The notes under the pieces were generated by a model. That model was given only the letters and a program-made list of their open reading frames with translations. It was not told the DNA's origin and did not search any database. A program made the position numbers and the translations under genes. 64,000 nucleotides of DNA from a phage. Positions within the stretch are counted from its first letter, which is position 1. Every line of letters starts with the position of its first letter. The stretch lies in the sequence record NC_135728.1, one strand, 5' to 3'. This document shows, piece after piece, positions 95 to 59,018 of the stretch.

Positions 95-301
95 ATGAAA
101 GATTTTCTGTTGGCAATTTTGTTCATGGCAGCATGTCTGGCCTGTGGTGTCGTGTTTGCAGGTGAAACAGCGTATCTTGTCGATGTATATCGGGACAATG
201 GTAAACGTATTTGCCTTTATGAGACAAGTCAAGGTGAGCTCTACGAGCTTGTGAAACAAGGCGAGGCTGGATCTTGTCCTCGCACCCATTTCTTTGAATG
301 A
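95..301 (+). CDS. small protein with N-terminal signal/TM-like segment
   Basis: 68-aa ORF with RBS-like aggagg upstream; N-terminus LLAILFMAACLACGVVFA is hydrophobic. Confidence 0.4.
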   Translation: MKDFLLAILFMAACLACGVVFAGETAYLVDVYRDNGKRICLYETSQGELYELVKQGEAGSCPRTHFFE

Positions 302-3516: not shown

Positions 3517-4073
3517 GAAAGAAAGCTGTCAAAGCCCCAGTTCATAACGGGTGGTTAAAAGATTCTAAGGACATAGCCAACTTTCGAAAAGAATTGTCAG
3601 AGGAGCAGGATGGTCTTGATCCGATCTTGTGCGAGCCACTTCGTAAGCCTTGTTTAGATCATGATCATCTGACTGGTCGTTGCAGGGGTGTTTTGTCTCA
3701 ATGCACTAATACCTTTGAGGGATATGTGCTTAAATACTGGATGAAATACTGTAACGAGTATACAGATTGCAGTTTATCAGAGGCGTTGCGCCGGATGGCT
3801 GACTATTTGGAGAAAGACTACAGCGACTTCCCGCTCCACAAAAACTACAGAGATGATATGACAAAGTTCTTGAGGAGATGCTCTAAAGCTACGATTATTG
3901 CACGAGCAGAATCAGATCTAAATCTTGTCATTAATCCGGAGTGCACCAAGCATGAGGCTATTGAGTTCTACATGCAGGAGTTTATAAAGAAAACTGAGGA
4001 GAGAGATTTCTATGGGGATGAAAAAGGTATTCAATCCTTGCGACTCAGTCCTGATCAGGATGAAATACCGTAA
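3468..4073 (+). CDS. endonuclease VII-like (HNH family) junction-resolving nuclease
   Basis: CLDHDHLTGRCRGVLSQCTNTFEG matches the T4 endonuclease VII signature (LDHDH..G..RG.LC..CN..EG); start uncertain, ORF overlaps upstream gene. Confidence 0.6.
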   Translation: MDRQGSSGGIIAKRKIRKKAVKAPVHNGWLKDSKDIANFRKELSEEQDGLDPILCEPLRKPCLDHDHLTGRCRGVLSQCTNTFEGYVLKYWMKYCNEYTDCSLSEALRRMADYLEKDYSDFPLHKNYRDDMTKFLRRCSKATIIARAESDLNLVINPECTKHEAIEFYMQEFIKKTEERDFYGDEKGIQSLRLSPDQDEIP

Positions 4074-4233
4074 CTGGAAAGGTGTTGTTGCAGATCGCTG
4101 CGTTACTGAGCCTAATTTATGGTTTGGATCTACAGAGTATCATAAAGAAGAGCAGTGGTTGATGCGTGCCTTCGATGTAGACAAGGGCGAATATCGTGAC
4201 TTCGCTTTAAAAGACATTCTTCAGTTTTACTAA
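4060..4233 (+). CDS. hypothetical small protein
   Basis: ORF track 4012..4233; an internal ATG overlapping the upstream stop is the likelier start. Confidence 0.3.
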   Translation: MKYRNWKGVVADRCVTEPNLWFGSTEYHKEEQWLMRAFDVDKGEYRDFALKDILQFY

Positions 4234-4245
4234 GGAATCTTAACG

Positions 4246-5229
4246 ATGATGACAAAGTTAACTCTTGAGCAAATTTTAACACTAAAGCAACAGGGATACA
4301 CTAATAGACAAATTGCTCGTGAATTTTTAGGCCGTGAGTCACGTGAGAGCTGGATCCGACTACAGCTTAAACGTGCACAAGAGAATATGTCAGAGATTGT
4401 AGGAGAAGCAACGGAGCGCTTCCTTGAAGAACACAAAGGTGCTAAAGTTTGGGTGTATGATACAGAGACATCCCCAACAAACGGCTGGTTCTTTGGGCAC
4501 TATAAGACCAACATTCAAACCTGTGGTATTGAAGTTATGCCCTATATGCTAACTTTCGCAGGTAAGTGGTTAGACAGCCCTAGTGTGGTTGACTGCGCTC
4601 TTCCAGATTACAAAATGTGGGATGAAGATATTCACAATGATCTCGAATTGATTCAGGATTTGTGGTATTATCTGGATAAATGCGATGTCGCAGTAGCCCA
4701 CAATTCAGGTTTTGACTGCGGGTGGGCCAACCAACGATTTGCATTTCACGGGTTGCCTCCAACAAGCCCCTACAAAGAGGTTGACACCCTTAAAATGATC
4801 AAGAAGGCATTCCGTTTGAATGCAAACACTTTGGAGTATGCATGCAAATACTTCCAACTGGCCAGACAGAAACTGATTGATCACACATTTGAAATGTGGA
4901 TCAAGTGTGTCCATGGCGATCTTGAGGCATTTAAACAGATGCGGGAGTATAATGTTGGTGATATCCTGTCTCTGGAAGGACTGTATTTGCTGGCTCGCCC
5001 GTTTGCTAAGCAGCACCCAAACATGTCATTGTACTACCAGGACGAGGAGCCAAAGGTTCGTTGCCCACGCTGTGGTGGAGAACACTTTCACGAGGAAGAA
5101 GCTTTGGCATATACTCAGCTGAGTGCATTTAAAACATACCGCTGCGAAGGTTGTGGATCTGTTGTTCGTGACCGTAACAACATCCGTACCAGAGAAGAAA
5201 TGAAAAACACCCTGATTCAGATAATCTAA
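4246..5229 (+). CDS. DEDD-family 3'-5' exonuclease with C-terminal zinc ribbon
   Basis: VYDTETS (Exo I), VAHNSGFD (Exo II), VGDILSLEGLY (Exo III-like), then CPRCGG...CEGCG. Confidence 0.5.
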   Translation: MMTKLTLEQILTLKQQGYTNRQIAREFLGRESRESWIRLQLKRAQENMSEIVGEATERFLEEHKGAKVWVYDTETSPTNGWFFGHYKTNIQTCGIEVMPYMLTFAGKWLDSPSVVDCALPDYKMWDEDIHNDLELIQDLWYYLDKCDVAVAHNSGFDCGWANQRFAFHGLPPTSPYKEVDTLKMIKKAFRLNANTLEYACKYFQLARQKLIDHTFEMWIKCVHGDLEAFKQMREYNVGDILSLEGLYLLARPFAKQHPNMSLYYQDEEPKVRCPRCGGEHFHEEEALAYTQLSAFKTYRCEGCGSVVRDRNNIRTREEMKNTLIQII

Positions 5230-48931: not shown

Positions 48932-49348
48932 TCAACAGAAAACTTCAACAAACTCTTCCACAGTTTTAATGTCGTGGGAAAAAGGTTTACGGCTATAACG
49001 GGCAATAGCACTATCAACCACCGCCCGGTACTCCAAATCTTCAGAATATTTCATGAAGCATTGCAGTGTTTCTGGACAGATAGCTAGATAGCTCCACCAC
49101 CCTTCATCAGATTGATAGTCAAAGCCCATGCTCTCCAACCATGAAGCATATACTCCAGCACCCTCAAGCCAGTGGGTATTTTCATCCAGAAACTTGTTAA
49201 CAGACATGTGAGCTTCTAAGCACTTGTCCAGCTCTTTTCCGTTAACCAGCCACGCACTGACTGTGGCACATCCAAGGTCTACAGATTGAGTTGACAGGTT
49301 GTATTGGTCATAGTTCTCAGGTTTAACAATGATATCTTCTAATGTCAT
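48932..49348 (-). CDS. hypothetical acidic protein
   Basis: 138-aa ORF. Confidence 0.45.
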   Translation of the reverse strand: MTLEDIIVKPENYDQYNLSTQSVDLGCATVSAWLVNGKELDKCLEAHMSVNKFLDENTHWLEGAGVYASWLESMGFDYQSDEGWWSYLAICPETLQCFMKYSEDLEYRAVVDSAIARYSRKPFSHDIKTVEEFVEVFC

Positions 49349-49410
49349 TTTTCAGATCTCCTTATACAAAAATGCCCCACCCTTTCGGGCAGGGCTATGT
49401 TAACTAGATG

Positions 49411-50637
49411 TTAGAAGGGGATGTCATCATCAAAGGCGTACTGTGCTGGATTCTGATCCATCGGGTCGTCTTCCCCATCATTTACAGGAGGAGCGTCTAC
49501 AGTGTTTTGCTGTGGAGCTGCTTCCTGTTTGGCAGCCTGAGGTTCTTGATGGTCAGTTGACCCAGCACCGTTCTTGATCCAATCGTACAACGGCTCAGCC
49601 AGATTAGTCAACACATCTTTTGCTTCTGCAGTAATTGCCGCTGCAAAATCATCAACTTTCGTTTTCTTGTCAATACGGCGACAAGCGTTCAACACCGCAT
49701 TACCGACACTGGCACCTACTTCATCTTCAGTTCGGTTGGTGGCTTGAGCATACTCTTTCTTAAGCTCAATGGTGACTACGTGCAGTGCTTTAGCCACACC
49801 TAGTGGGTCGTCTACCTTAAACCCGCGATCCAGGATGATTTGCAACGCATTGATGCTATGCCCAGTCTCCACACCAATAGGGTCGTAAGAGGATTTACGC
49901 TTGCCACCAGAGCCTTGAGTGCCGTTCTCTGCCTTAGGTGGGTAGGCTTTGAAACCACTGATAATGTTTCCGGTGTCTTTGTCAACAATGGCTGCAACAC
50001 GACCACCTACCACCAGGTCTTTAAGCTGCTCATCAGTGACAACCATAGCACCTTCGCCAATCTTGTGGTCATTAACAGTAACCACGTTGCCAACAATCTG
50101 AGCCACATCGCCATAGATGCGTAAAACGTCCTGATTGGCATTCTGCTGAGGTTTCTGCTTCTGACCTTGTGATTGTGCACCTTGTTGCTGTTTTTGCTGC
50201 TGAGTCGCTGCTGGAGCCTCTCCTGCACCCAGCTTAACCATCTTAGCCAGTGAGCCTTTGTAGTAGGTCTTACCGTTATGCTCGTTTGCCTTCAAAGGAA
50301 TATTTACGATCCATCCTGTCGTTACGGTTTCCCACTTGTCATCAATCTTAACAGAGACAGAGTCTTGATGACCCGGTTTAAGCAGCTTATCACCCATGCT
50401 GATCCAGACTTCTTCACCACCTTGAAGCAGGTTATCAGAGGAATCCAGTTCAGAAATCAGTAAAGAGATGGTGTGGCTGGACTCAATTTTCTTACCTTGC
50501 CACACGGTGGTTTTAATACCTGTTGCAGGATCAGCCCCTTTAATAGGTTTGATGCTAACACGTTTGATCATACCGTGAGCCAGTAAAACAGTTTCACGCG
50601 GATTCATCGGGTTAGCAAATTGTTGAATAACGCTCAT
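49411..50637 (-). CDS. ssb: single-stranded DNA-binding protein-like (DDDIPF tail)
   Basis: C-terminus ends AQYAFDDDIPF, the acidic SSB tail; preceded by Q/P-rich low-complexity linker; 408 aa. Confidence 0.6.
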   Translation of the reverse strand: MSVIQQFANPMNPRETVLLAHGMIKRVSIKPIKGADPATGIKTTVWQGKKIESSHTISLLISELDSSDNLLQGGEEVWISMGDKLLKPGHQDSVSVKIDDKWETVTTGWIVNIPLKANEHNGKTYYKGSLAKMVKLGAGEAPAATQQQKQQQGAQSQGQKQKPQQNANQDVLRIYGDVAQIVGNVVTVNDHKIGEGAMVVTDEQLKDLVVGGRVAAIVDKDTGNIISGFKAYPPKAENGTQGSGGKRKSSYDPIGVETGHSINALQIILDRGFKVDDPLGVAKALHVVTIELKKEYAQATNRTEDEVGASVGNAVLNACRRIDKKTKVDDFAAAITAEAKDVLTNLAEPLYDWIKNGAGSTDHQEPQAAKQEAAPQQNTVDAPPVNDGEDDPMDQNPAQYAFDDDIPF

Positions 50638-53273: not shown

Positions 53274-53497
53274 AGGTCCTCTTCAACAACTACAAACTTG
53301 GCAAGCAAAGTGGTTCCGTAGATATGATACTCACCGTTTGCGAGGTGAGAGATATACCAGGCAACCCCTTCCTCGTCTTTAATCATTTTGTTTGCACGAG
53401 CTTTATCGTAATAAACCTCGTAGGTCTTTCCTTCTTTAAAGAATGACAGGTCTGTCATCTTTTCTTCTACAAAGGTAGCTTTAACCAAAGTCGTCAT
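53270..53497 (-). CDS. small acidic protein (VVVEEDL tail)
   Basis: 75-aa ORF. Confidence 0.4.
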   Translation of the reverse strand: MTTLVKATFVEEKMTDLSFFKEGKTYEVYYDKARANKMIKDEEGVAWYISHLANGEYHIYGTTLLAKFVVVEEDL

Positions 53498-53868
53498 TGA
53501 TCGGTCTCCTTCTTGTTAAGTCTGAATACTGCAATAATAGTATTCCCAAGGTGCAGTGTCAAGTCATTTCCAAGGTACCACAGCATCCCACGGTCATCTT
53601 TAATGAAAGGGTAACAATCTGGTGCCTTCCAGACATTGTACACTTTCCCAACCTGAAAGAAATCAGGCCCTGTTGGTATTTTGGTGCCAGGCCACACTTG
53701 AGATACCTGAACACACTCCACCTGCATAATAACAGGAATGGTCATGGATGTAAATGTTTTTGTTGGCTCTACTACCATAAAAGTCTCCTCTTTGCTCAAC
53801 AGCACCTCCCTGTGCTGATAGTTTACATTAGTGACAATCCCCCCAGTTACGACCACACAAGTATTCAC
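53494..53868 (-). CDS. hypothetical protein
   Basis: 124-aa ORF; its 5' end overlaps polymerase exon 2 so the true start may be internal. Confidence 0.35.
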   Translation of the reverse strand: MNTCVVVTGGIVTNVNYQHREVLLSKEETFMVVEPTKTFTSMTIPVIMQVECVQVSQVWPGTKIPTGPDFFQVGKVYNVWKAPDCYPFIKDDRGMLWYLGNDLTLHLGNTIIAVFRLNKKETDQ

Positions 53869-54181
53869 CTGTGATCTGGAACGGGACTCCCATCATTTTA
53901 GAAGCTTGCCAGAAGCAATGCACCACCATTTCACCCACAGGGCTCCAGATAAGTTCAAGCTTTCCGTCATCGTTCAGGATAGGATCGTACACCGTGTTTC
54001 CGTCTCTGTCAACCACTTCGTTTCCGTCCTCATCCTTGCGTGCCTTTTTGTACTTATGACCGTCGAACACATGAAGTTTGGCTTCCTGCTCTGCCTTAAA
54101 TGCCTCCAGTTGCTCAATTGTGTCGAAGGTGTACACAGTCTTATACTTAGGCGTGTCAGGCACTTGAAGTTGGTACTCATC
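53828..54181 (-). CDS. DNA polymerase (family A), exon 2
   Basis: Begins DEYQLQV, completing motif C (YHDE) when joined to exon 1; C-terminus VPFQITGEYLCGRNWGDCH parallels Pol I C-terminus VPLLVEVGSGENWDQAH. Confidence 0.7.
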   Translation of the reverse strand, partial: DEYQLQVPDTPKYKTVYTFDTIEQLEAFKAEQEAKLHVFDGHKYKKARKDEDGNEVVDRDGNTVYDPILNDDGKLELIWSPVGEMVVHCFWQASKMMGVPFQITGEYLCGRNWGDCH

Positions 54182-54457
54182 CAATAGTTCAGGTAGGTCG
54201 TTAAGCTACCCCGCACCATTACGTGCATAGCCATACGTTTTCACGTAGGATCGGACCATCTCATATTCCTATGATAAGCAACCACAGGAATCCTCCCATT
54301 TCGACCGCACTTGCTGGTCTACTTCCTTTCGGAATGGCCTCTGAGCGTTCGCTCTTTTGAGCGCTTCGTTGCGGATTACCTTGCCATAAGGTTTAGGCTT
54401 CCCGCAGTTAAAGAGGTTATTCGACATAGATTACTCTATGAAGCCACAATGTTATTT
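54182..54457 (-). other. group I self-splicing intron in DNA polymerase gene
   Basis: 5' exon ends in U with U-G pair to guide sequence GUGG; intron ends in G; P10 pairing CAUU with exon-2 GAUG; core elements P AACUGCGGGAAG, Q AAUCCGCAAC, R CUCAGAGGCC, S GAGAUGGUCC in canonical order. Confidence 0.75.
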
Positions 54458-56881
54458 ATGGTAATAAATAATACGACGAACACCTTCATCGTACCACCCA
54501 CGCTTCACCATTTGGTGGTGCATGAGTATCCCAACTAAGTCACACAGCGATGCACCACCATTTTGTTGGTATGCATTAAGTAAAGAGTGTTTAGATCTGG
54601 TCCAGATAGCATGACCATCGAAAGAGTAGATAAACTTCTTACCTGTTGCTTCCCAGAATTTCTCCAGATCCTCTTTGCGCCCCTTAAGACCGGGGTTGGC
54701 ATCCCAAAGTGCATCTATTACCCTTTGCCCCAACTCTGGAGAGATGTCCAACATATCTGCAACTTTATCTTTTTGTGCCCCGTACATAACACCATACGTG
54801 ATAGGTTTACCGTCGTTACGGGACACCTCTCTGCCTGCTACTTTTGTATATGCCTCGGCATTGTTTTGGTGTGCGTCTCCGTTACTTACAACATCATAAT
54901 ACAGGCCGTTGTCGAACTCAAAGGCACCCCAAGCCCCGATAAGCTGCTCTAAGTTGGACCCGTCAATACCGATCTGAAAGTATCCGGGAGGAACACCCCA
55001 TAGACTACGCATCTCTTTACCCATAACCACTTTAGGAGATGGTTTAGGCATGTTTGCACAAATACTGTGTTTCTGTCTGGAAGTGTTTGTTAGCCCAGAA
55101 CTTTTAGCAGGAAGCTTATGGTCAATCTTCAAACGTGGGTGATTAAGAAGACCAGTATCAACCTTATCCTCCTTGATTGGGTCAAGGACCGATCTGCGGT
55201 TTCGCAATGATAACCACAAGACGATATCTTTAGCCATCTCTCCGTTCAATTTTTCAAGATTCGGACACAGGTGTCCAAACGTATCTTTCAGTTGCGGAGA
55301 AGTAATAAGTGCCCTGGCTTTTCTACGTATTTTCCCGAACACTTCCTTTTTAATCCTTTCGGAGTTAGGAAAGCTTCGGAACTTGTGCACGGTTGTCTGG
55401 AACTTAGCATCAGTTTTGTTCCAGAAGTTGATAATTAGGTCACAATACTCTGACTCTAAAAGCTCGTCCATATAAGCATATACTCGTGCATCAACATCTG
55501 CATCAGGTAGAGCTTTCTTCTTGCTGTCTTTAGTTACATCCTTAGTTCTCCACATTGTCGGGAGCCAGCCAGCGCTGATCAGATACCGCTTAATGTCGTC
55601 CTGATTGCTGATTTTCATAGGTATCTTGCAGTCCGGCATTCGCTTCTGCTGTAGATCACTTATTGCCTGATCCATCAGCTCTTTAGGCAAAGGGTGTGGT
55701 GTGGAAGTTCCCTTAATATAGCCTCTCAAGAAATCAGCCATCTTATCGGGGTCTTTGCAGCCCATCTCTTCACACCATTTTATCCCCATCTTGCTGACAT
55801 CCCCTGTAGAGGTAAATGCTCTCTTAGGCGGGGCTTTGAACTCTAAAGCGCTCATGTCTACAGGATAGCCAAGCTTATCTTTTAACCATTTCCAACCATT
55901 ATTAGAGATTGTCCCGTCTTGGTTAAACGGCTTTTCAGGGAACTTGGGCCGCTGAGACATTGACAGCTCTTTTAAAGGCAGTTGTGGTTCAACACGATCA
56001 GCTATTTCTTTCATCCACGCATCGCAACGGTCACGTAAAGCAATAGCTCCATCTATGTCGAAGTATACACCCTGACGGGCCTGCAGCTCCATCAGGAAGT
56101 GCTGCAGCATGCCTCGACGTAATGCGTTCTTCCAGGTGATCTTCTTGAACCCTTTCGGCTTCTCTTTGGCAGGATCGTACATAAAGTTCTGCATGTCAGA
56201 TTTGCCGTAGAATACACCTTTTGATTCCGCTACCAGCTCTTTCCAGAGCAGCTCCTGGATGATAACGTCCTCGAATACACGATCCACATACTTCCACAAC
56301 GGGAGATCGCGCCAGTCATCAATTTGAACTTTCTGGTTACCAAGGGCGTAGCCCCATGCCATAAGACCGTGAGGTCCAACAGGCTGCATTTTCTTAGTAA
56401 CCGGGTTAAATACTGAGTCTGGACAACCTTTTGGCAAAGGTCGGTCAGGCCACAAAATTCGGCTCATAGCCAATGTATCAAACAGATTAACCTGGTGGTC
56501 GTTGATAGTCCCCATACACTTAGGATCACGGAACATATCAAAATGAATACCGGACAATCTCTCCATCAGCATAAAGTCGTAGCTGTAGCAGTTGTGGCAG
56601 TTCAAAGCTGTGGGTGACCAGTCAGAATTGCCTGTAAGCCAACCTTCCAACTCTGAAAAATCTGCTATGCGAACTTCAAAATCTTTATAAAGAGTTTTCT
56701 TTGCCAGAATAAAGTTCTTAGCCTTCTCTATATCCTCTTCAGAGTAGTGTGTGCGGTCATTTAGAGGAAGGAACAGCATAAAACGGTTCTTATTCAGCTC
56801 TTTAAACAAGCCGCAGTGATAATAAAGATCTAGGTCTTCTAGTAAACCAGAGGCCTCCAGGTCGAAAGACCACATACTCAT
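54458..56881 (-). CDS. DNA polymerase (family A), exon 1
   Basis: 3'-5' exo motif FDLEASGL; polymerase motif A-like QIGIDGSNLEQ; motif B KPITYGVMYGA; ORF stops one codon after YYH, just before the expected HDE. Confidence 0.8.
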
Positions 56882-56939
56882 ATACAGTTCTCCTTAAAGG
56901 GGAGGCGGTTGTACTACCCCTCCCACTCTTGGTTAAACA

Positions 56940-59018
56940 TTAAAAAGGTGTTTCATCGTCTTCAAAACCGGGAACAGGGTCAGAGGACGGATCATCATAC
57001 GGAAGGTCTTCTTGTGTGTCAACAGGGTTAACAGTAGGAGTTACAACCTTATCAGCCACAACCCTACCTACAGGTGTTTCTACAACTGCGTGCTCTTGAT
57101 CCTCAAACATAGCTTGAGGTCTCCAAACAACCTCCCCACCTTCTCCGTCTGTGAACATCTGCATTTCTTTGTCCCAGTACCAGTTGCTGGCATCATGGAA
57201 CTTACCTGTGTGGGGATCCATAACTAAGGTATCCGCAATGCCTAACGTTTTTGCTGGGCGGTTTTTAAGACCTACCAGTCGGACACGTCCACGGGAACGA
57301 TCCACCATCTCTTCTGCCTCCACCCCAACAACTACCCAGCTAAGTTGCTCCAATCCGGCACTACCCCGAAGGTTCTCTTTTCGTACAGGATACCAGAAAG
57401 GTAACGGATTCCCATCCTTGTCCTTTGGAGGCACAATCTCTGTGCGTTTCAGGTGAGCGATCACCAAGATAAATACATTAAACTGCTTACAGAACGCGGC
57501 TAGTTGGGTCATAGCCATGTCCAGCTCTTTTCGCTCATCCTTAACATTAAGCCCTGAAATTACCATGGACAGGTGATCCAGCACAATATAACGGCAGTGA
57601 TACAGACACACCATTTGTTTAAGCTTAGTGATCAACTCATCTACAGGAATAGACCCAAAATGCTTGAACACTTTGATTTTTCCCGCCTTGGCCCAAGATT
57701 GGTGAATCTCAGCATGCTCCTGATCAGTCAGGAACTGACTAGGGTCTTCAACAAACTCTTTAACATCAAACCCCAACTGGTTGGCGTATAGAGAGTTAAT
57801 TGCTTCCTCAGGGTCCTCTTCAAGGTGAATCAGACACAGGCGATCATCCTCTTCATAATCATCGGCTTTAGGGCATGTAGGATCCATCAAGTATTTTGCA
57901 ATGCAGTGTTCTAGTTTCTTGGCTACAGTTGTTTTACCACCGCCAGATGGGCCTGTCAGCATCATCAAGGTGCCTTTGTGAAGTCCTTTCAGCATCTTCT
58001 GCAATTTAGGGAACTCCGCGCTGATATCTACGCCATTAGAAGTCTTCTTACGAAGAGATTCAATGGAGAAGTCTTCTAAATCAGATACAGCATCAGGCAC
58101 ATATTTGACTGGGTGACGGAACATGTTGACAATATCTTCCAGCTTTTTAGCCTTCAGCATGTCACGGATATCTTTTACACCGTCAGGGTCGTTTACCTCA
58201 CTGGGGTATTCCACGTGGTAAACGTTATCAGCCATCAAAAATGCCGCGATATTATGTGTGGCTTCAACACCTTTGATAACGTGTTTTTGCTTCTCTACCT
58301 CGTTAGCTGCATCGTTGTCCATTGCAAGGACCACTGTTCCGTAGCTACGGATAAATTTCTCATTGTTTGCAAAAGTATCTACTGCGTTTGCACATCCACA
58401 GTTAATTCCAACAAAAGGCAGGCAGGGTTTTCCTGCCAGATCACCCCCGTTGATAACTGCATCGATCCCGTCCTGGACCTCTTTAGCCCACTGTTTCACC
58501 TTTGCCGGGGCTTTAGCGTTGGTGAGAATCCCTTTTACTTGTATCTGATATGCAGCCTGCCATGCTGCAATAACATCGCCTTCCCCCTCACAAACGTTAA
58601 TCTGCTTACGGTTGTTAGAAGATGCACACAGCTTTTGCCCAAACATTTGGGAGTTAGCCTTTACGATCCCAACCGTCGTAAAGTGCCCACGTTGCTCTTT
58701 GGGGATCGTCCAGTCACGCTTTTTGAAACCGGACAGATTCCCGTAGCGGTCGTAATATGGAAAATATGTTGCAGTAACTGTCACACCGTCTTCTTGGGAC
58801 AATGCTGATCGCACACCAAAATATTGTGCAGCCATCAGACCGATATTTTGTTGTGGGACAGGGACGATTTTAGTATTTTCTAAAACAGTCTCTACAGTTT
58901 CAACCTCTTTTTCATCACGATAGTCTCGTTTCACACTTCCCCCACTTTTATACTTAGTTGCTTTCGGGTTTGGCTCACCGAAACGGTTATATGCAGATGC
59001 CATAAATTTACTTCCCAT
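56940..59018 (-). CDS. primase-helicase (TOPRIM primase plus DnaB-like helicase)
   Basis: TOPRIM-like CEGEGDVIAAW in N-terminal half; Walker A MLTGPSGGGKTT and Walker B-like LIHLEED in C-terminal half. Confidence 0.75.
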   Translation of the reverse strand: MGSKFMASAYNRFGEPNPKATKYKSGGSVKRDYRDEKEVETVETVLENTKIVPVPQQNIGLMAAQYFGVRSALSQEDGVTVTATYFPYYDRYGNLSGFKKRDWTIPKEQRGHFTTVGIVKANSQMFGQKLCASSNNRKQINVCEGEGDVIAAWQAAYQIQVKGILTNAKAPAKVKQWAKEVQDGIDAVINGGDLAGKPCLPFVGINCGCANAVDTFANNEKFIRSYGTVVLAMDNDAANEVEKQKHVIKGVEATHNIAAFLMADNVYHVEYPSEVNDPDGVKDIRDMLKAKKLEDIVNMFRHPVKYVPDAVSDLEDFSIESLRKKTSNGVDISAEFPKLQKMLKGLHKGTLMMLTGPSGGGKTTVAKKLEHCIAKYLMDPTCPKADDYEEDDRLCLIHLEEDPEEAINSLYANQLGFDVKEFVEDPSQFLTDQEHAEIHQSWAKAGKIKVFKHFGSIPVDELITKLKQMVCLYHCRYIVLDHLSMVISGLNVKDERKELDMAMTQLAAFCKQFNVFILVIAHLKRTEIVPPKDKDGNPLPFWYPVRKENLRGSAGLEQLSWVVVGVEAEEMVDRSRGRVRLVGLKNRPAKTLGIADTLVMDPHTGKFHDASNWYWDKEMQMFTDGEGGEVVWRPQAMFEDQEHAVVETPVGRVVADKVVTPTVNPVDTQEDLPYDDPSSDPVPGFEDDETPF

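Follow-up and report, generated by a model that had tools for sequence, protein, structure and literature searches.

How does this phage make its DNA polymerase? In the stretch of phage DNA that we analyzed (the window, 64 kb), the polymerase is spread over two open reading frames on the minus strand. The first (54452..56881) encodes 809 amino acids and ends with IIYYHK and a stop codon; the second (53828..54184) has a TTG start and reads (L)DEYQLQV. The gap between them is 276 nt (54457..54182, minus strand), with more in-frame stops downstream of the first one. If the exons are joined, they encode exactly 925 amino acids, containing ..IIYYHDEYQLQV.., and the predicted junction peptide is IIYYH-DEYQLQVPDTPK. 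We think that the insert is very probably a group I intron inside motif C of the polymerase gene, and that it is spliced out to give the 925-aa enzyme. Its features are listed in Table 1.

Table 1. Features of the polymerase locus, with positions in the window
Feature	Position	Strand	Details	Evidence
DNA polymerase exon 1	54458..56881	-	808 codons, Met1..His808; 3' end ...UUACCAU	ORF list; blastn break at 54458
Group I intron, IA2-like, 276 nt, without endonuclease ORF	54182..54457	-		RF00028; exact indel versus intron-less alleles; covariation
In-frame UAA stop	54452..54454	-	Intron positions 4-6	Sequence
Internal guide sequence CAUUGUGG	54444..54451	-	Intron positions 7-14	Helix map
Catalytic core P3-P9	54231..54416	-	Intron positions 42-227; P3, P4, P5, P6/P6a, P7, P7.1, P7.2, P8, P9	Helix map
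P6a hairpin CGCUC-AAAA-GAGCG	54350..54363	-	Intron positions 95-108; place of the HNH ORF in relatives	
P7.1 (UUCC-GAAA-GGAA), GUA linker, P7.2	54303..54334	-	Intron positions 124-155	Helix map
Peripheral helices P9.1 and P9.2	54191..54227	-	Intron positions 231-267; 3' of the Rfam match	
DNA polymerase exon 2	53828..54181	-	Asp809..His925 and stop codon	ORF list; tblastn

The ends of the insert can be read from phages that lack it. In V18, EdH4, DrSchubert, naswa, PMBT16, and ECP32, whose intron-less polymerases are ~99% identical at the amino acid level, a single HSP reads through the junction. When the DNA is aligned to that of DrSchubert (using blastn), the alignment splits exactly at 54458/54181, with zero ambiguity in the boundaries. 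We also used tblastn to map residues 1-808 as exon 1 in relatives. The original prediction, which was made from the raw sequence, had the 809-aa reading frame stopping one codon past IIYYH and expected a spliced product of about 925 amino acids with HDE restored, and both statements are true; its placement of the 276 nt (54182-54457) is correct to the base, as the intron-less alleles give the same boundaries.

Comparing the joined exons to family A polymerases had been suggested as a check. Residues 633-813 of the joined protein align with residues 468-658 of T7 DNA polymerase (gp5; E = 1.3e-16). This alignment crosses the junction: iiyyHDEyql faces AWVHDEIQV of T7, with HDE opposite T7 residues 653-655. 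The intron enters motif C after the His codon and before the Asp codon (H653/D654 in T7), and the intron-less alleles agree. In the predicted joined polymerase, motif C (H-D-E, including the catalytic Asp) would be contiguous. Joining the exons also extends the match to Pfam's DNA_pol_A from position 261 of the profile to 348 (of 381), although the score of the joined protein, 32.6 bits, is slightly below the curated cut-off of 34.3.

The other suggested check was to search with Rfam's covariance model for group I introns (RF00028). The match has 64.7 bits (E = 4e-14), which is above the gathering score of 50 and much better than chance would give, and it runs from 54467 to 54232 and covers model positions 1-253 of 253. 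When we scanned the whole 64 kb with Rfam at a permissive threshold (E ≤ 0.1), there was no match besides RF00028 and there were no further introns. The sequences at the splice sites have the pairing potential of a group I intron: GUGG (intron positions 11-14) can pair with CCAU at the end of exon 1, with U.G at the splice site (P1); CAUU (intron positions 7-10) can pair with GAUG of exon 2 (P10); and the intron's last base is a G (G276 or omega-G), which is followed by the GAUG. In the helix map, P7 forms a pseudoknot with P3, and all of the core helices, along with the bulge in P7, are intact in the 276 nt. Folding by minimum free energy (MFE), which cannot depict this pseudoknot, yields P2, P4, P6a, P7.1, P8, and P9 without any constraints, and the MFE z-score of the intron is -2.83. 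The U.G splice site, P10, and terminal G that were originally described are all present, and the core elements P, Q, R, and S are in the canonical order that was claimed (P4, containing P/Q, and then P7, containing R/S). Overall, the RF00028 score, the intron-less alleles, the T7 alignment, and the covariation (see below) agree with the claim of a group I intron.

The fold is conserved. We examined nine homologous introns that have the same insertion site, and across these homologues, 99.1% of the paired cells are retained as pairs. Both sides changed in 25 of the 62 pairs, as compared to 0-5 in slid controls, and none of 500 shuffles reached the observed covariation score, with the P3/P7 pseudoknot included. 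Compensatory changes occur in P3, P4, P7, P7.2 (GACCAGC..GCGGUC), P8, and P9, with two such pairs each in P3, P7, and P7.2. The peripheral helices P9.1 and P9.2 are 100% paired, and one and four of their pairs, respectively, are altered on both sides. P1 is identical in all nine homologues and P10 is 91.7% paired; covariation is uninformative for P1 and for most of P10, which are invariant. (The count excludes P5, P6a, P7.1, and the inner half of P8 because their lengths differ between relatives, which puts the MAFFT alignment out of register.)

The mark of subgroup IA2 is a pair of additional helices, P7.1 and P7.2, which lie between P7 and the 3' strand of P3 and are linked by G-U-A (PMC3428280). 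As the intron has a P7.1 and a P7.2 joined by GUA, it is IA2-like. GUAG is invariant throughout the intron alignment, P7.1 varies in length, and the P7.1 helix is absent from the copies in Vibrio phages. It is possible that P5 (CCUAAA..UAUGG) acts as a tetraloop receptor, and it might dock the GAAA loop of P9.

The original prediction left open whether this intron had been described, and it has been. The window is from Escherichia phage LL12: three of its proteins are exact matches to LL12 proteins, and one of the three is the predicted 925-aa product, which is identical to LL12's AXC42883.1 (genome MH491969). The announcement of the LL12 genome (Piya et al. 2019, PMC6658697) describes the gene for the polymerase (gp212) as "disrupted by predicted intron sequences". 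So, the intron was already known and is the same object as LL12's annotated polymerase intron. The announcement does not give the class of the intron, its structure, an analysis of the insertion site, or a comparison to other phages; our analysis supplies these, including the IA2-like fold, the covariation, and the H/DE site. A different isolate, RudolfGeigy/Bas52 (MZ501102; Maffei et al. 2021, PMC8594841), has a 276-nt intron that is 100% identical, while its exons are ~96.6% identical. The annotation of its polymerase CDS joins two pieces, and the protein (QXV84155.1) equals the splice prediction for that phage.

The identical 276-nt intron is present in 22 phage records, all deposited phage genomes. 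Another 12 records have homologous introns at the same H/DE site, including Vibrio phages whose polymerases are distantly related. At this site, 13 of 13 intron-bearing alleles have the codons CAU/GAU; 4 of 5 intron-less alleles have CAC or GAC. We also checked the protein sequences of the exon flanks for signs of co-conversion. Although phiTE and CR9 share the flank WYDEGVRRIIYYH, these residues are also found in CR3, which has no intron, and this indicates ordinary conservation.

Of these relatives, phiTE (a Certrevirus) has an intron with 72.6% identity to the LL12 copy over positions 114-276 and 70% over positions 1-98. The intron of Pectobacterium phage CB7 is 93.8% identical to phiTE's intron at the motif C site, and RT-PCR found that CB7's polymerase intron splices (Buttimer et al. 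2020, PMC7344957). The CB7 and phiTE introns are 687 nt and carry an HNH_3 ORF in the region of P6, while LL12's is 276 nt and lacks an ORF. In the C-terminal region, the polymerases of these phages are only ~57% identical to ours, and their motif B holds a second intron.

How would splicing proceed? The chemistry is suggested by membership in the group I family. In the pre-mRNA, the guide's GUGG would pair with CCAU of exon 1 to form P1, which would place a U.G wobble at the 5' splice site. An external guanosine bound by P7 would attack this site. The guide's CAUU would then position the start of exon 2 (GAUG) by forming P10. Finally, the U of exon 1, through its freed 3'-OH, would attack after G276, which would ligate the exons. 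Translation of the spliced mRNA would give the 925-aa polymerase. Unspliced RNA would give the 809-aa product, which would end at the UAA stop one codon into the intron and would lack the catalytic Asp and Glu. We infer that splicing occurs in vivo because the phage is viable and because of the RT-PCR on the homologue.

We considered other ways that the phage might cope with the interruption. If the insert is never removed, then the 809-aa and ~117-aa polypeptides would need to assemble into an active enzyme, as is reported for the split NrdA of Aeromonas phage Aeh1. Many GenBank records, including RefSeq's rV5, do annotate two separate "DNA polymerase" CDSs; there is an in-frame TTG 3 nt upstream of exon 2; and split genes that do not splice are found in phages (PMC7344957). 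But nothing that resembles a Shine-Dalgarno sequence precedes this TTG (the upstream sequence reads ..GACCUACCUGAACUAUUG), and the break separates the His from the Asp-Glu of one catalytic motif. Also, it would be pointless to keep a complete ribozyme by compensatory substitutions if it were never excised, and the same-site homologue from CB7 does splice. We consider assembly from two polypeptides to be very unlikely.

We give just as little credence to the idea that the intron is a decayed relic that no longer splices, so that the polymerase is a pseudogene, or that the break is an artefact of assembly. The LL12 copy is compact, it lacks the endonuclease ORF, its P5 and P7.1 are shorter than in close relatives, its P6 has A.C in place of the relatives' G.U, and it looks like a mosaic: the 5' 65 nt are 92% identical to the FFH2-type intron, while the 3' 168 nt (with P7, P7.1, and P9) are 76% identical to the SSE121-type. 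These features might indicate decay. However, LL12 has been isolated and grown in the laboratory (PMC6658697), even though the catalytic residues of its polymerase are encoded downstream of the break. All of the core helices and the bulge in P7 are intact, as are the terminal G and the U.G at the splice site, and 22 phage records share the identical 276 nt. Furthermore, the P7 and P9 of SSE121's intron are identical to those of the LL12 copy, and its P7.1 is comparably compact. Finally, an intein or ribosomal bypassing can be dismissed almost entirely: in the relative 241Ecol014PP, another part of this gene holds an in-frame insert of ~324 aa that weakly matches a Hint domain, so inteins may target this gene too, but the UAA one codon in and the later stops rule out an intein here, 276 nt far exceeds the 50 nt that are bypassed in T4 gene 60, and the ribozyme fully explains the element.

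We take motif C of E. coli Pol I to be H881-D882-E883. By this numbering and the T7 alignment, the H/DE insertion position would be the "site 881" of PMC3428280. According to that account, the T7-like phages PhiI and W31 (AY769989, AY769990) have introns of subgroup IA2 at site 881 of Pol I, reported in 2004, in genes that likewise encode family A polymerases of enterobacterial phages; we matched these introns to ours by the descriptions of their site and subgroup. As described there, the HNH gene, where present, is in P6a, which is its place in the long-form relatives of LL12's intron. The introns of PhiI and W31 are described as having the HNH endonuclease I-TslI, with self-splicing shown, while the LL12 copy has no ORF and its splicing is predicted. 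SPO1, SP82, Bastille, and Pf-WMP3 also have IA2 introns in conserved functional regions of phage family A polymerase genes, but these introns lie elsewhere, in the fingers subdomain (Pol I site 674), and encode the nicking HNH endonucleases I-HmuI, I-HmuII, I-BasI, and I-PfoP3I (PMC3428280).

The original prediction also stated that the intron has no internal homing endonuclease, which holds up: the only ORFs that overlap the intron are one of 52 aa within the ribozyme and one of 86 aa that spans the 3' junction, and neither has a match in Pfam. (In the relatives, the HNH_3 ORF is inside the P6 loop.) When we compared nine endonucleases to the whole 64 kb with tblastn, we found no homologue. 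We also looked in the window for a free-standing endonuclease gene adjoining the polymerase and found none; rV5's ORF213 endonuclease is missing. FFH2 and 241Ecol014PP do have free-standing HNH genes adjoining the polymerase gene. As the LL12 copy has no HNH homing endonuclease, it cannot home by itself, and it probably spreads or persists by recombination during mixed infections. More speculatively, and we think this less likely than not, the LL12 copy might have arisen by recombination as a compact, ORF-less intron, and it might now be chiefly an immunity allele that can be mobilized in trans (collaborative homing). By splitting the H/DE target, it may shield the polymerase gene from the HNH endonucleases of the long-form introns in co-infecting Vequintavirinae. 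If so, the strict use of CAU/GAU would reflect both pairing with the guide and the evolution of the endonuclease's target.

As a discovery, this intron has little importance, but a reading of the raw sequence located the ribozyme and its splice sites with single-base precision. The result is useful for annotation: many public records still split the polymerase of rV5-like phages into two genes and add spurious small ORFs in the ribozyme, and the RefSeq type genome is one of these records. For studies of phylogeny or function, the spliced 925-aa product is preferable. More broadly, near-identical phages are polymorphic, with no intron, the compact intron, or an intron that bears an HNH gene. 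This polymorphism is a convenient natural system for studying intron gain, intron loss, and competition driven by endonucleases, in coliphages with uses in therapy and in probiotic products.

The polymerase gene, on the minus strand of the window, is interrupted within motif C, the HDE motif of family A polymerases. The original prediction was that a compact group I intron separates the two ORFs, and all of the elements it listed are present, at the coordinates it gave, in the ORF list and in the sequence. Between the His and Asp codons are 276 nt (54457..54182, minus strand), which begin with AAAUAACAUUGUGGC, have an in-frame UAA at positions 4-6, and end with ..CUAUUG. Conceptual splicing of 54458 to 54181 keeps the frame and restores HDE; the product contains ..RRIIYYHDEYQLQV.. 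and is exactly 925 aa (about 925 aa was expected). This joined protein matches T7 DNA polymerase structures (E = 1.3e-16), and the alignment of its residues 633-813 to T7 residues 468-658 is uninterrupted at the junction, with iiyyHDEyql facing AWVHDEIQV. This puts the insertion point of the intron within motif C, after the His codon and before the codons for the catalytic Asp-Glu. The match to Pfam's DNA_pol_A ends at profile position 348 of 381 for the joined protein vs. 261 for exon 1 alone, and the joined protein scores 32.6 bits, slightly under the curated cut-off (34.3). Mechanical ORF calling also gave a downstream ORF of 124 aa with a GTG start (53494-53868), which overlaps the final 41 nt of exon 2. 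For its rV5 equivalent (ORF 224), the annotated overlap is 29 nt, and the true start of the 124-aa ORF may be further downstream than called.

Exact-sequence look-up identifies the predicted spliced product as AXC42883.1, "DNA polymerase A [Escherichia phage LL12]." The neighboring primase/helicase (AXC42884.1) and a 408-aa protein (CPT_LL12_201, AXC42872.1) also match LL12 exactly, so the window is from Escherichia phage LL12 (MH491969), an rV5-like (Vequintavirus) coliphage. The best DNA match in the phage collection that we searched was 97.3%; MH491969 is outside that collection. Whether the intron was already described had been left open, and the answer is yes: it is known and is annotated in the LL12 genome. 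An identical intron is present in the BASEL phage RudolfGeigy, whose joined CDS product (QXV84155.1) is the same as our splice prediction.

Rfam's group I intron model (RF00028, gathering score 50) matches 54467..54232 (minus strand) over its full length, with 64.7 bits (E = 4e-14); scanning the whole 64 kb at E ≤ 0.1 gave no other Rfam match. P9.1 and P9.2 are outside the model, which is why the match ends 50 nt before the 3' splice site. The fold is more stable than shuffled versions (z = -2.83). To locate intron-less alleles, we used tblastn with 179 aa across the junction as the query. V18, EdH4, DrSchubert, PMBT16, naswa, and ECP32 read through the junction in a single HSP at 97-99% amino acid identity. 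In the DNA alignment with DrSchubert, the break falls exactly at 54458|54181, where DrSchubert positions 1686 and 1687 adjoin, and judging by the flanking bases, these boundaries are unambiguous. Rfam detects the intron in intron-bearing relatives and finds none in DrSchubert's intron-less locus.

The helix map includes the P1, P10, and terminal G that had been predicted. A G-U-A connects P7.1 to P7.2, which is the criterion that places phage polymerase introns in subgroup IA2 (PMC3428280).

Features of the interrupted polymerase gene, its intron (helices in intron numbering, 1-276), and related loci
Feature	Position	Strand	Remarks
Polymerase ORF, exon-1 side, 809 aa	54452..56881	-	ORF list; C-terminus ...IIYYHK*
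Polymerase ORF, exon-2 side, 118 aa	53828..54184	-	TTG start; reads (L)DEYQLQV...
P1	exon CCAU with G11-G14		U.G at splice site
P10	C7-U10 with exon-2 GAUG
P2	18-22 with 29-33
P3	42-47 with 161-166
P4	52-57 with 83-88
P5	60-62 with 73-75
P6	90-91 with 111-112
P6a	95-99 with 104-108
P7	117 and 119-123 with 200-205		A118 bulged
P7.1	124-127 with 132-135		GAAA loop
P7.2	139-145 with 150-155
P8	168-177 with 183-192
P9	209-215 with 220-227		GAAA loop
P9.1	231-235 with 242-246
P9.2	247-252 with 262-267
Intron 3' terminal base	G276
Hypothetical-protein ORFs	rV5 3956-4114 and 4149-4409 (L001)		window 54269-54427 and 53974-54234
LL12-identical proteins (three)	window 53828-59018 and 49411-50637
Motif B inserts	L007 434-1167; L011 367-1037; L012 905-1617; L009 1144-1393		loci of relatives

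Homologous introns occupy the same H|DE site in rV5, RudolfGeigy, 241Ecol014PP, HMD-6, FFH2, TH18, SSE121, phiTE, and CR9, and also in three Vibrio phages (exons ..SYH|DEFTVEC..). We aligned nine distinct introns, with endonuclease inserts removed, and considered 62 pairs of conserved helices, excluding P5, P6a, and P7.1, whose lengths differ among relatives. Standard pairs fill 99.1% of cells, vs. 35-44% with the 3' partners shifted 1-3 columns. Both sides change in 25 of the 62 pairs (0-5 in the shifted controls), and the covariation score is 0.44 (0.03-0.09 in the controls). For four of five measures, 0/500 shuffles match the observed value. Compensatory changes occur in P2, P3, P4, P7, P7.2, P8, P9, P9.1, and P9.2, including the P3/P7 pseudoknot; P1 is invariant, so covariation is uninformative about it. 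Thus the covariance model, the intron-less alleles, the T7 alignment, and the covariation support the group I reading. In the large-terminase gene of phage Av-05, 120740-120872 is 73% identical to intron positions 8-148, which suggests that the polymerase intron and the introns reported in the terminase genes of rV5-like phages are members of one ribozyme family; LL12's terminase is outside the window.

Could the exons be translated separately, as a two-polypeptide polymerase? This is unlikely: exon 2 has no ribosome-binding site upstream, the break cuts one catalytic motif in two, and selection acts on the ribozyme's structure. An intact core and the presence of an identical 276-nt intron in 22 phage records make a dead relic unlikely as well. 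The in-frame stop codons within the insert exclude an intein or translational bypass. Membership in the group I family implies standard two-step transesterification, in which an external guanosine would attack after U-1 of exon 1; the 3'-OH freed in this step would attack after G276, with exon 2 aligned by P10. In unspliced RNA, ribosomes would halt at the UAA. We infer that the LL12 intron splices in vivo because the catalytic Asp and Glu are encoded downstream of the break; because of the 22 records, and because LL12 is itself an isolate that was grown in the laboratory (PMC6658697); and because the CB7 intron, which is 93.8% identical to phiTE's motif C intron, splices by RT-PCR and sequencing (PMC7344957).

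As predicted, the intron has no internal homing-endonuclease ORF: a Pfam search of the 52-aa ORF inside it and the 86-aa ORF across its 3' end matched no family. RefSeq rV5 (NC_011041; ORF 227 and ORF 226) and several other records list these as hypothetical proteins; lying inside or across the ribozyme, they are almost certainly spurious gene calls. The P6 loop of FFH2, SSE121, and CR9, between ..CAGCGAAG and AACGUUCAGAG.., holds an inserted ORF of about 500 nt, and phiTE has an ORF in the same region. These ORFs match HNH_3 in Pfam (SSE121, 39.6 bits; phiTE, 32.9; FFH2, a weak 17.7). In the LL12 intron, the small P6a hairpin takes the ORF's place. Over its first 65 nt, this intron is 92% identical to the FFH2 type; over the last 168 nt, it is 76% identical to the SSE121 type, with which it shares P7 (GGCCA/UGGUC), P9, and a similarly compact P7.1, so it looks like a mosaic. 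Homologs of nine tested endonucleases were sought in the 64-kb window, and none were found. We also compared rV5's "endonuclease" ORF 213 (121386-122009; similar to phiYeO3-12 gp13.5) with window 49348-49411. Its counterpart is absent at ~48.8-49.4 kb, where the polymerase offset would place it, and tblastn gave no significant match window-wide. As judged by sequence comparison, this presence/absence polymorphism is typical of a free-standing homing endonuclease.

The junction reads CAU|GAU in 13/13 intron-bearing alleles (54178-54181 and 54458-54461 in the window; relatives' loci L001-L018), and CAC or GAC occurs in 4 of 5 intron-less alleles, a small sample. P1 (U.G) and P10 need CAU|GAU. 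Across the first four exon-2 codons, LL12 differs from an intron-less sister at every wobble base (GAU GAG UAC CAA vs. GAC GAA UAU CAG). Constraint from the guide sequence, a short co-conversion tract, or a diverged endonuclease target may lie behind the pattern.

A second intervening sequence, in motif B (..ITYG|VMYGAQ..), is present in TH18, SSE121, phiTE, and Vibrio phage 424E50-1; LL12 lacks it. Those of SSE121 and phiTE contain an endonuclease ORF, and Rfam matched three of the four (52-93 bits), with TH18's unmatched. In Escherichia phage 241Ecol014PP, exon 1 has a 972-nt in-frame insert at ..GDAH|Q|NN.. (L003 3499-4470). The ORF stays open (1132 aa annotated), and the insert's N-terminus has a weak match to Hint_2 (23.7 bits, under the cut-off); it is probably an intein. 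The polymerase gene has three distinct insertion sites for selfish elements: the two intron sites and this insert.

That phage family A polymerase genes can carry IA2 introns has been known since SPO1. PhiI and W31 have introns at Pol I "site 881" (PMC3428280). In Pol I numbering, motif C is H881-D882-E883, which makes this the same H|DE position as in LL12. In the 2013 rV5 paper, terminase introns are the only ones mentioned and the polymerase is given as 775 aa, so many records in the group are still misannotated. RefSeq rV5 and several other records have the polymerase as two separate CDSs. Sixteen records named "Campylobacter phage" (MG0656xx; host C. jejuni) match the polymerase region. 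Those listed (hits H4-H7, H10, H14-H16, H19-H20, and others) show 95-97% identity to rV5-like coliphages in this region, and several of the records have the same intron unchanged; this looks like a wrong host label or coliphage contamination of the samples. Our additions, which leave the existing picture unchanged, are the subgroup assignment, a structure supported by covariation, the finding that the site is equivalent in distant phages, and how the compact form relates to the HNH-bearing ones.
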